This document shows, in pieces, positions 147 through 803 of a stretch of 5,319 nucleotides of DNA. The stretch is from a virus. Its lineage: Duplodnaviria; Heunggongvirae; Uroviricota; Caudoviricetes. The position numbers and the translations under genes are program-made. The notes below the pieces were generated by a model, which searched no databases, was not told the origin of the DNA, and saw only the letters and a list, made by a program, of their open reading frames with translations. Within the stretch, counting starts at the first letter, position 1; the number at the start of each line of letters is the position of its first letter. The stretch is taken from positions 1-5,319 of the IMG/VR virus record IMGVR_UViG_2548876940_000001. The stretch is one strand, 5' to 3'.

Positions 147-169
147 AATAAAAAACCCACCGAAGTGGG
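147..169 (-). terminator. Rho-independent terminator closing the AT-rich ORF
   Basis: On the minus strand: stem CCCAC / GTGGG (plus 165..169 and 156..160) with a UUCG tetraloop, followed by TTTTTTATT (plus 155..147). It starts right after the TAG stop at 172..170. Confidence 0.7.
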
Positions 170-508
170 CTATGACCATTTTTTATTTGGATTTCGTTGG
201 TGAGCGTGATTAACAACTCTGTGCATTACATCCTCATATTTTTCATCTTCAATTTTTTCGACATCGCGAGGAAATGGTGTTGCTAATGCTTTGTCAACTT
301 TGTCCATTGGGTCTTCATTAATCTTATATTCAGGACCGTCATCTATAGCATTAAATCCAGGTGTTACACCGTTTTTTAATGCATATGCTATCCTCTTTTC
401 CCATCTCGCTATTCTCCTCCTGTCTCGAGATGTAAGACCTCTATCAGATACTTTTCTGTTTTGTCCGCGGTCAGGATTAACATAAATAGTCTTTTTCACC
501 ATAAGCAT
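170..508 (-). CDS. Hypothetical protein, AT-rich cargo gene downstream of N (about 110-112 aa, highly charged, no cysteine)
   Basis: Six-frame ORF 170..514 (the track starts it at a TTG). Likely starts are ATG 508..506 (MLMVKK...) or ATG 502..500 (MVKK...), only 2 or 8 nt past the N-frame stop at 513..511. Stop TAG at 172..170 is followed by the terminator. Spot counts give about 35-37% GC against about 50% in O/P. No family recognised. Confidence 0.5.
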   Translation of the reverse strand: MLMVKKTIYVNPDRGQNRKVSDRGLTSRDRRRIARWEKRIAYALKNGVTPGFNAIDDGPEYKINEDPMDKVDKALATPFPRDVEKIEDEKYEDVMHRVVNHAHQRNPNKKWS

Positions 509-510
509 AC

Positions 511-803
511 TCAATAAGCACCGTACGGTAGTTTACTGTACAATTTTATTTTTGGGACTGCATGTATTTTGTTTCCTAATGGGTTTGAATCCTTGTAATA
601 AATACTTCTATTTTTTCGAACAACTTCTTCTTTCTTCTTGCAGCAAAGGCTTCTTAGTGATGCTGCTTTGTCTGCTCTGACGCAACCAGAGAGCTTTAGC
701 GCAATTTTTCGCTACTGCGTCGCTCGGCAATAAGTTCTGCTCTGCGAGCTTTGTAGCGGCTTTTTGCCGTACCTTTGGATTCTTTCCAGACAATGGTTAC
801 CAT
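511..803 (-). pseudogene. N: Antitermination protein N, phage 21-type arginine-rich motif, interrupted by a frameshift and with a divergent C-terminal tail
   Basis: AGGAG (817..813) then ATG 803..801. Frame A reads MVTIVWKESKGTAKSRYKARRAELIAERRSSEKLR then TAA at 698..696; the GTAKSRYKARRAELIAERR segment is the phage 21 N boxB-binding ARM. The rest of N is in another frame (711..514): RKIALKLSGCVRADKAASLRSLCCKKEEVVRKNRSIYYKDSNPLGNKIHAVPKIKLYSKLPYGAY, stop TGA 513..511, preceded by an in-frame TAG at 714..712. No single frame spans the gene. Confidence 0.65.

Follow-up and report, generated by a model that had tools for sequence, protein, structure and literature searches.

Regulatory lesions in N and pR probably ground a nun-bearing lambdoid prophage of Escherichia coli

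Can the loss of an antitermination gene, upstream of an intrinsic terminator, lock the leftward operon of a lambdoid prophage? The question is posed by a stretch of 5319 nt (here called the window) which makes up the entire draft contig AIAU01000129.1 (GCA_000446445.2) and contains the early-control region of a lambdoid Escherichia coli prophage of the O26 11368 / mEp235 type. The region is a mosaic: immunity is of phage-21/P22 type, N and the nut sites are of phage-21 type, and O, P and ren are of lambda type. A first-pass annotation of the window had proposed that N is defective, that a terminator inserted behind it stops transcripts from the leftward promoter pL, and that the element is a domesticated or cryptic prophage whose cargo gene is expressed from pL when repression is relieved. 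The analysis described here makes it likely that the element is instead a recently grounded prophage, with lesions in lytic control, in which immunity and exclusion by the factor Nun have been kept; such a prophage is probably not inducible.

The lesion in N is a 13-nt deletion (ATGAAGCACTGGC), located by alignment with relatives between window positions 713 and 712. The gene (696..803, minus strand) starts with ATG at 803 and, after a frameshift following residue 30, ends with TAA at 698..696, so that 30 native residues are followed by SEKLR and the product has 35 amino acids, compared with 99-101 in relatives. The 13 nt are retained in mEp235, Kapi1 and phage 21, and in the O26 11368, Z1323 and 6629 prophages. 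Residues 1-30, which form the arginine-rich RNA-binding arm, are identical to those of phage 21 N. The remainder of the dead gene (512..695, minus strand) is out of frame and corresponds to the C-terminal 65 residues of the 101-residue mosaic N of relatives, an alternative C-terminus that resembles the N/gp24 proteins of Salmonella phages ES18, L and ST64T. Two substitutions in this remainder, at 554 and 654, are non-synonymous in the old N frame (Q to P and G to R, respectively) and are confined to the window and contig L018 among the contigs that cover these sites; position 554 lies also in the spacer of the nun promoter.

Profile searches locate the missing part of the protein. Truncated N matches positions 59-91 of the 176 in PHROG 271 (N-like; E = 9e-9), while the intact 101-residue N matches positions 59-172, the segment 92-172 being absent from the truncated form. 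Pfam PF25694 is uninformative for this subgroup, for truncated N (17.5 bits), intact 101-residue N (18.4 bits) and phage 21 N (22.4 bits) all lie below its cut-off of 27.9. What remains is the arm, together with its cognate phage-21-type boxB; the regions that bind NusA and RNA polymerase are gone. In published work, lambda N from which residues 73-107 had been removed gave 7% readthrough against 38% for the wild type, C-terminal deletions of H-19B N failed on a construct with two terminators, N was found to require its NusA- and polymerase-binding regions at distal and hairpin terminators, and N-nut binding alone was enough only at a nut-proximal Rho site (PMC3526286). Since both of these regions have been lost, the 35-residue N should not carry polymerase past the nun terminator, about 760 nt 3' of nutL, or past the additional leftward terminator-like sites known from the O26 relative. 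The proposed defect in N therefore stands: N is very probably null, and is best regarded as a pseudogene rather than a functional member of its family.

Two ways in which antitermination might have been rescued were considered and set aside. Programmed frameshifting or re-initiation to restore the C-terminus is improbable, as judged by eye: the A-run at GAAAAATTG has 5 bases and offers no in-frame slippery heptamer of the form X XXY YYZ, and no ATG, GTG or TTG occurs before the end of the downstream frame. An N-independent bypass through a put RNA of the HK022 type was rejected because homology to HK022 begins at 628, downstream of putL, and the nut sites are of phage-21 type; an Rfam search returned nothing relevant.

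The window is a short, 5.3-kb contig of a draft assembly, and it might be supposed that the 13-nt gap is an error of sequencing or assembly and that N is intact. However, the identical junction is present in eight contigs (the window, L007, L009, L010, L011, L018, L019 and L020) from different assemblies and runs and from different projects and technologies, two of them as long as 135 kb and 175 kb; it is always linked to the same changes in the rightward promoter pR and the left operators (OL), and the loss of 13 nt from non-repetitive sequence is atypical of sequencing error. The 35-residue product is called on five of these contigs, and their sources comprise bacterial assemblies, assemblies of sequencing runs and one metagenome scaffold. 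An artefact can be given practically no weight.

The clearest sign of disabling is found elsewhere, in pR, which lies outside the region that the first-pass annotation had singled out. At 1791..1817 (plus strand) the -35 hexamer reads TTAACT, through a G to A change at 1793, and the -10 reads G-TAAT, with one base fewer (at about 1811..1813). The intact promoter, TTGACT and GATAAT separated by 16 nt, is present in phage 21, mEp235 and Kapi1 and in the O26 and Z1323 prophages. All eight N-deleted contigs share TTAACT together with a GGTAAT -10, from which a further base has been lost in the window and in L011. Both changes lie outside the three right operators (OR) annotated in phage 21. A consensus scanner finds pR in mEp235, with 10/12 matches, and finds no rightward promoter at the equivalent place in the window. 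To judge from these hexamers, the doubly mutated pR would be a stronger indication of disabling than the lesion in N.

The right side of the window contains, beyond the repressor, cro, a cII homologue, lambda-type O, P and ren, and ninB, as called from open reading frames and Pfam. The right nut site, at 2041..2080 (plus strand; boxA 2041..2048, boxB 2063..2080), is an exact match to boxA-R and nutR of phage 21. Just after ren, at 4382..4413 (plus strand; hairpin 4382..4405), the scanner places an intrinsic terminator resembling lambda tR2, with an 8-bp stem containing six GC pairs followed by TTTTATTT. With such a terminator on the right, loss of N would block the rightward operon too, and the block would be bidirectional.

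These features bear directly on the proposal that the element is still a working phage, for which a weak pR and a 35-residue N are enough, or in which N has become dispensable as in nin-type variants of lambda. All the other genes seen are intact, one of the carrier contigs is listed by IMG/VR as a viral genome fragment, and N without its C-terminal part does keep activity at a nut-proximal Rho terminator (PMC3526286). However, the tR2-like terminator and the nin region are both present, which argues against a nin-type bypass; the -10 of pR lacks the conserved A at its second position and the -35 lacks its G; and the haplotype is absent from a collection of 50,697 phage records, being known only from assemblies of bacteria or of sequencing runs and from one metagenome scaffold. 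That the prophage still works as a phage is thus highly improbable.

The terminator on which the original proposal turned is present close to where it had been placed (147..169), at 145..171 on the minus strand, with its stem at 171..154 and its T-run at 153..145, and is the first intrinsic terminator to be met by pL transcripts after nutL. The hairpin AGCCCAC-UUCG-GUGGGUU has a 7-bp stem with four GC pairs and a UUCG loop, and is followed by TTTTTTATT. It was among the seven terminator-like sites called in a scan of 1..2200, in which 1.7 were expected, and the 46-nt fold at this site has a predicted energy of -12.3 kcal/mol (z = -2.0). The sequence is identical in the O26 and Z1323 prophages and in mEp235; compared with HK022, the stem has changed from CCCGC/GCGGG to CCCAC/GTGGG, a single covarying pair that gives modest support.

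This terminator belongs to a cassette whose gene, nun, encodes the transcription termination and exclusion factor known from HK022. nun lies at 170..499 on the minus strand, encoding 109 residues from a GTG at 499 (the annotated form, of 112 residues, starts from an ATG at 508). The protein is identical at 108/109 positions to chain N of PDB 6ALG (E = 3.8e-71), the one difference being S11R, and matches PHROG 5632 ('Nun-like') over its full length (E = 1.8e-68). Residues 19-44, the RNA-binding arm, do not differ from the 1HJI peptide, and the C-terminus NPNKKWS is shared with 6ALG, K106, K107 and W108 being kept. HK022 Nun binds lambda nut RNA, arrests polymerase and blocks lambda (PMC4496710, PMC5386594), and for transcription arrest it needs both the arm and K106/K107/W108 (PMC4496710). 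In every N-deleted contig that covers nun the protein is identical.

The expression of nun had been attributed to pL, upon relief of repression. The gene has, by its sequence, its own promoter at 535..563 (minus strand), inside the former N coding sequence, with a -35 of ATGCAG at 563..558, a 17-nt spacer and a -10 of TACAGT at 540..535. Both hexamers are identical to those of HK022 and to those annotated as 'nun gene promoter' in phage O276 (MH547045), whose immunity/nun region is annotated as derived from HK022 (HK022 pR, pL, putL, Cro and Nun); the substitution at 554 is the sole change, in the spacer. King, Madsen and Weisberg reportedly found in 2000 that nun is expressed constitutively from a repressed HK022 prophage, and that its transcripts end just 3' of nun. 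With these conserved hexamers, expression of nun is predicted not to depend on pL or on relief of the repressor, and the earlier attribution has to be given up.

Two observations on nun in other phages may be placed here. In HK022 (L005, NC_002166, approximately 8050..8184, minus strand; window 512..628) an N-like 3' remnant, VVRKNRSIYCKDSNPLGNKIHAVQKIKLYSKLPYGAY, lies directly upstream of nun and holds the annotated nun promoter; in phages of the mEp235/O26 type this stretch still serves as the 3' end of the 101-residue N, and the nun promoter is thus situated inside N coding sequence. This suggests that nun was at first located 3' of an N gene that was complete. In Kapi1 (L014, MT813197, 1627..2273), nun (Kapi1_019) and N (Kapi1_020) are both annotated as hypothetical proteins. 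As far as the published lists for the Kapi1 lysogen go, RNA-seq did not detect kil, cIII or Kapi1_017, and 019 and 020 are not on the undetected list (PMC12922286). Those lists, which come without numbers, are compatible with expression of nun in lysogens.

Relative to phage 21, the cassette is a clean insertion at approximately 132..593, about 25 codons before the N stop, and it is flanked by copies of a direct repeat, ATTTATTACA, at 603..594 and 131..122. Beyond it, at 45..131 (minus strand), lies the orphan 3' end of a phage-21-type N (IYYSKPRSEMGVTCVGRQKMKLGSKPLI, stop), whose first 10 nt (131..122) constitute the second copy of the repeat; it is 96% identical to the 3' end of phage 21 N, and in relatives the Prokaryotic Genome Annotation Pipeline (PGAP) calls it a pseudogene, 'regulator, incomplete, missing N-terminus'. 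The minus strand of window 1..36 holds the first 12 codons of a gene for 156 residues, which in all relatives comes next after the orphan 3' piece of N. The insertion unit has its own promoter hexamers and its own terminator and is absent from phage 21, where the flanks rejoin within N; by its layout, the promoter-nun-terminator unit is a classical moron nested in N. In relatives the insertion leaves a complete N of 101 residues, made up of a phage-21-type 5' part and the alternative C-terminus.

The arrangement of N, nun and terminator is not peculiar to this prophage, being present in the viable phages mEp235, mEpX1 and Kapi1, in Stx1a-converting phages, and in 208 of 5426 complete E. coli genomes. 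Viable phages have the same cassette together with an intact N, so the terminator by itself does not amount to a lock. In those relatives N-modified polymerase presumably reads through it, by analogy with the terminator tL1 of lambda, whose position it shares. The description of the terminator as inserted is correct with respect to phage 21, but it came as the nun cassette's own 3' end and predates the lesion in N, and cannot be considered a special lock added behind a dead gene.

The promoter whose transcripts such a lock would stop, pL, lies at 1000..1028 (minus strand), overlapping OL1, with a -35 of TTGACC at 1028..1023, a 17-nt spacer and a -10 of TAAATT at 1005..1000. It was matched by the scanner, its hexamers are those of mEp235 and Z1323, and its position fits that of pL/OL1-OL3 as annotated in phage 21. 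The left nut site (914..953, minus strand), with boxA GCTCTTTA at 953..946 and the phage-21-type boxB hairpin TCTCAACCTAACCGTTGAGA at 933..914, is an exact match to the boxA-L and nutL features of the phage 21 record OL657228. Three changes in the left operator region are private to the N-deleted lineage: one at the centre of OL1 (1009), one at 1032, 3-4 nt upstream of the -35 of pL, and one in OL3 (1077), at the G of an AAG half-site. The centre of OL1 is polymorphic among intact phages.

In its full form, the original proposal would have the terminator inserted behind dead N, with pL turned into a dedicated unit for expression of the cargo, the leftward operon locked, and the prophage long domesticated or cryptic. 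N does appear to be dead and the terminator is real, and the private changes in OL1, in OL3 and upstream of the pL -35 could alter the control of pL. Against it, the terminator is older than the lesion in N and is present in HK022 and in viable phages with intact N, the gene's own promoter is conserved, and the left-arm genes are not eroded. The premature stop in N would, moreover, leave about 190 nt untranslated before nun, and the resulting polarity would be expected to lower any expression of nun driven from pL. We consider this proposal unlikely.

The state of the left arm was judged from sister contigs, as the window ends at position 1. L018, from a contig of 175 kb, covers the stretch between the xis side and a point beyond Q, and over the 5319 nt of the window it shows a single mismatch and a single gap. 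L019, from a contig of 135 kb, starts at cII, takes in nun, the recombination genes, xis and int, and reaches host DNA on the yfaA side, the same insertion site as that of the O26 11368 prophage. L007, the contig that matches the IMG/VR entry, differs from the window across 1..1100 at 554 and 654 only, both in the out-of-frame stretch of N. These contigs confirm that the recombination and excision genes lie leftward, as they do in close relatives, and the integrity check that the first-pass annotation had called for finds no decay: int, xis, exo, bet, gam, kil and cIII each keep their full length.

Between int and Q, the span to which the comparison applies (the late, structural region of the N-deleted prophage falls outside it), N is the sole open reading frame in L018 and L019 whose length differs from that in the O26 prophage; 30 others are unchanged, O being left out of the comparison. 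For Int, Xis, Exo, Kil, CIII, Nun, Cro, CII, P and Ren the protein sequence is the same as in the O26 prophage, the remaining genes have 0-3 amino acid differences, and many of the nucleotide differences are synonymous. Overall identity between the O26 prophage and the N-deleted sister contigs is 99.5-99.7% over about 26 kb. No erosion of the integration, recombination or replication genes, as would be expected of a defective prophage, is seen in this span. The left arm of the O26 relative contains several more leftward terminator-like sites. As every compared gene from int to Q other than N is full length, the disabling appears to be recent and limited to regulation; the prophage does look disabled, in N and pR, but it is not the eroded cryptic remnant that had been suggested.

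The consequences can be predicted by combining the sequence with established mechanism. With N cut down to its RNA-binding arm by the 13-nt deletion, and with both hexamers of pR mutated, inactivation of the repressor would allow pL to fire, and unmodified polymerase would mostly stop at the nun terminator, leaving kil, cIII, gam, bet, exo, xis and int poorly expressed. Transcription from the weak pR would also stop at tR2-type terminators, so that Q and the late genes would go unreached. cI, nun and the nun promoter hexamers are untouched, and the cell would therefore be expected to keep both immunity and Nun exclusion of phages with lambda-type nut sites. Several points weigh against this reading. 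How efficient the terminator is, and how strong the mutated pR, is predicted from sequence; the arm of N can by itself counter Rho beside nut (PMC3526286), and a local effect at tR1 may persist; the assignment of the nun promoter leans on the GenBank annotation of O276; and the integrity of the left arm is read from sister contigs only.

One further candidate lesion was examined in the repressor. cI, of P22 c2 / phage 21 type, is intact (1118..1768, minus strand; 216 residues) and has Pfam HTH_3 and Peptidase_S24 domains. Codon 145, at window 1334, specifies Ile, compared with Met in the O26 and Z1323 prophages and in mEp235, and falls in the S24 peptidase domain. It was considered whether M145I might be a mutation to non-inducibility, but the same protein accompanies intact N and pR on L016 and L017, on another phage backbone, and cI-I145 is probably a natural variant.

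It is tempting to ask whether grounding of the prophage was favoured by selection. Seven changes in window 44..2263 are private to the lineage, namely the deletion in N, 1009, 1032, 1077, cI M145I (1334), 1793 in the pR -35 and 1813 in the pR -10; none is in nun, cro or cII, and none is synonymous in cI. Among 489 complete genomes that have the pR region, strain 6629 alone comes within one difference of the window. There (L015, 20024..20119) the -35 change occurs by itself, with the -10 and N intact, on an OL background of the O26 type, in a prophage that is more decayed, having an IS600 insertion and an internal stop in the large terminase gene. The concentration of the seven private changes in switch elements, together with the possibly independent -35 change in 6629, is suggestive of selection.

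On that proposal, lesions would have been selected that silence a costly or lethal prophage and keep cI immunity and Nun exclusion. It is consistent with the location of all seven private changes in switch elements, none synonymous and none in nun, cro or cII; with three separate loss-type lesions in N and pR while 30 other open reading frames (O left out) keep their length; with the later, further loss in the pR -10 of the window and L011; and with the recurrence of the -35 change alone in 6629 on a different OL background. However, the numbers are small and their statistics post hoc, the carriers may represent one bacterial clone, cI-I145 is a natural variant and the OL1 centre varies among intact phages, several of the changes could have entered jointly by recombination from an unsampled immunity variant, and the match in 6629 could likewise stem from recombination. 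Adaptive grounding is accordingly a serious possibility, which we would place somewhat below an even chance.

The haplotypes can be arranged in an order. The base haplotype is that of L007, L010, L019 and L020, and L009, which stops short of 554/654, shares its pR and N states; the substitutions at 554 and 654 in dead N were then added, as in L018; and finally the extra base of the pR -10 was lost, as in the window, a loss shared by L011, which also stops short of 554/654. A fuller history, in which a nun prophage was silenced by selection in steps, beginning with the pR -35 (as in 6629), followed by the -10 and the frameshift in N, and then by the further -10 loss, is put forward tentatively, the balance leaning somewhat against it.

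The N-deleted haplotype was sought more widely. It is absent from the collection of 50,697 phage records, where the best phage matches all keep the extra 13 nt. Among complete E. coli genomes, 0/380 that cover at least 80% of the segment have the deletion, the best full-length matches being 164 nt in length against a query of 151. Scans of contigs from GTDB genomes and JGI metagenomes, made with the deletion junction or the pR -35 variant, gave zero matches. Within what could be searched, the haplotype itself appears to be undescribed, while all of its components belong to well-known families.

Two features of the rightward region may be recorded for completeness. On the minus strand at window 2388..2497, antisense to the 3' end of cII, a promoter-like sequence (TTGAGT and CATAAT, 17 nt apart, with an upstream TG) occurs together with a strong hairpin and a T-run, which is the layout of the oop antisense RNA of lambda; Rfam gave no match. 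The O protein has 299 residues, as in lambda, compared with 312 in the O26 prophage, the difference being one 13-residue repeat in the origin-iteron stretch at window approximately 2838..2851.

For annotation, the analysis draws attention to a prophage that looks complete apart from an N pseudogene and a dead pR; it is unlikely to be inducible, yet prophage-prediction tools would probably give it an intact score. The supposed cargo gene turns out to encode the well-studied anti-lambda factor Nun, and the cassette nested in N is common in E. coli prophages, including Stx1 phages. The lesions form a small, clean natural series of regulatory changes that could serve in tests of selection for lost inducibility. 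If stepwise silencing were true, the case would illustrate, from nature, how bacteria ground a prophage by regulatory point lesions, possibly recurrently, while keeping its defence cargo.

Among known systems, the nun moron of HK022 is the obvious counterpart. Window 153..628, which takes in nun, the hairpin and about 130 nt upstream of nun, is 96.4% identical to it, and the terminator has the same position, albeit with a longer T-run in the window. HK022, in contrast, has no N, relies on put RNA for antitermination, and retains only the N-like 3' remnant upstream of nun; in the relatives of the window this DNA is joined in frame to the 5' half of a phage-21-type N, and there are phage-21 nut sites and no put site. 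Phage 21 itself agrees with the window in the first 30 residues of N, in the boxA and boxB of each nut site and in the OR region, but it has an uninterrupted N of 99 residues followed by ral, with no nun cassette or terminator at that place. The order pL, nutL, N, nun, terminator and orphan N 3' end is common to mEp235, mEpX1, Kapi1, the Stx1a phages and the O26:H11 11368 prophage. Across window 1-1120, mEp235, mEpX1, Kapi1 and the O26 prophage are 96-98% identical to it, and PA28 and the Stx1a phages 90.7%; mEp235 and Kapi1 share the P22/21-type cI, while the matches to mEpX1 and the Stx1a phages end near 991-995, short of cI. Relatives of the mEp235/O26 type differ from the window in having an intact N of 101 residues and a consensus-like pR (TTGACT-16-GATAAT).

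In N-minus mutants of lambda, transcription from pL and pR ends at the first terminators that it meets, and the delayed-early genes (the recombination genes, int/xis and Q) are not expressed. The nun terminator occupies a tL1-like position. The window differs from those mutants in that its first terminator accompanies an inserted gene with a promoter of its own, and in that its N lesion arose naturally and is linked to mutations in pR. The prophage also resembles other grounded lambdoid prophages of E. coli, in which point lesions disable the phage and genes for immunity and exclusion are kept; it differs from them in that, in the visible part, its lesions are confined to N and pR, and int/xis and the recombination and replication genes are retained.

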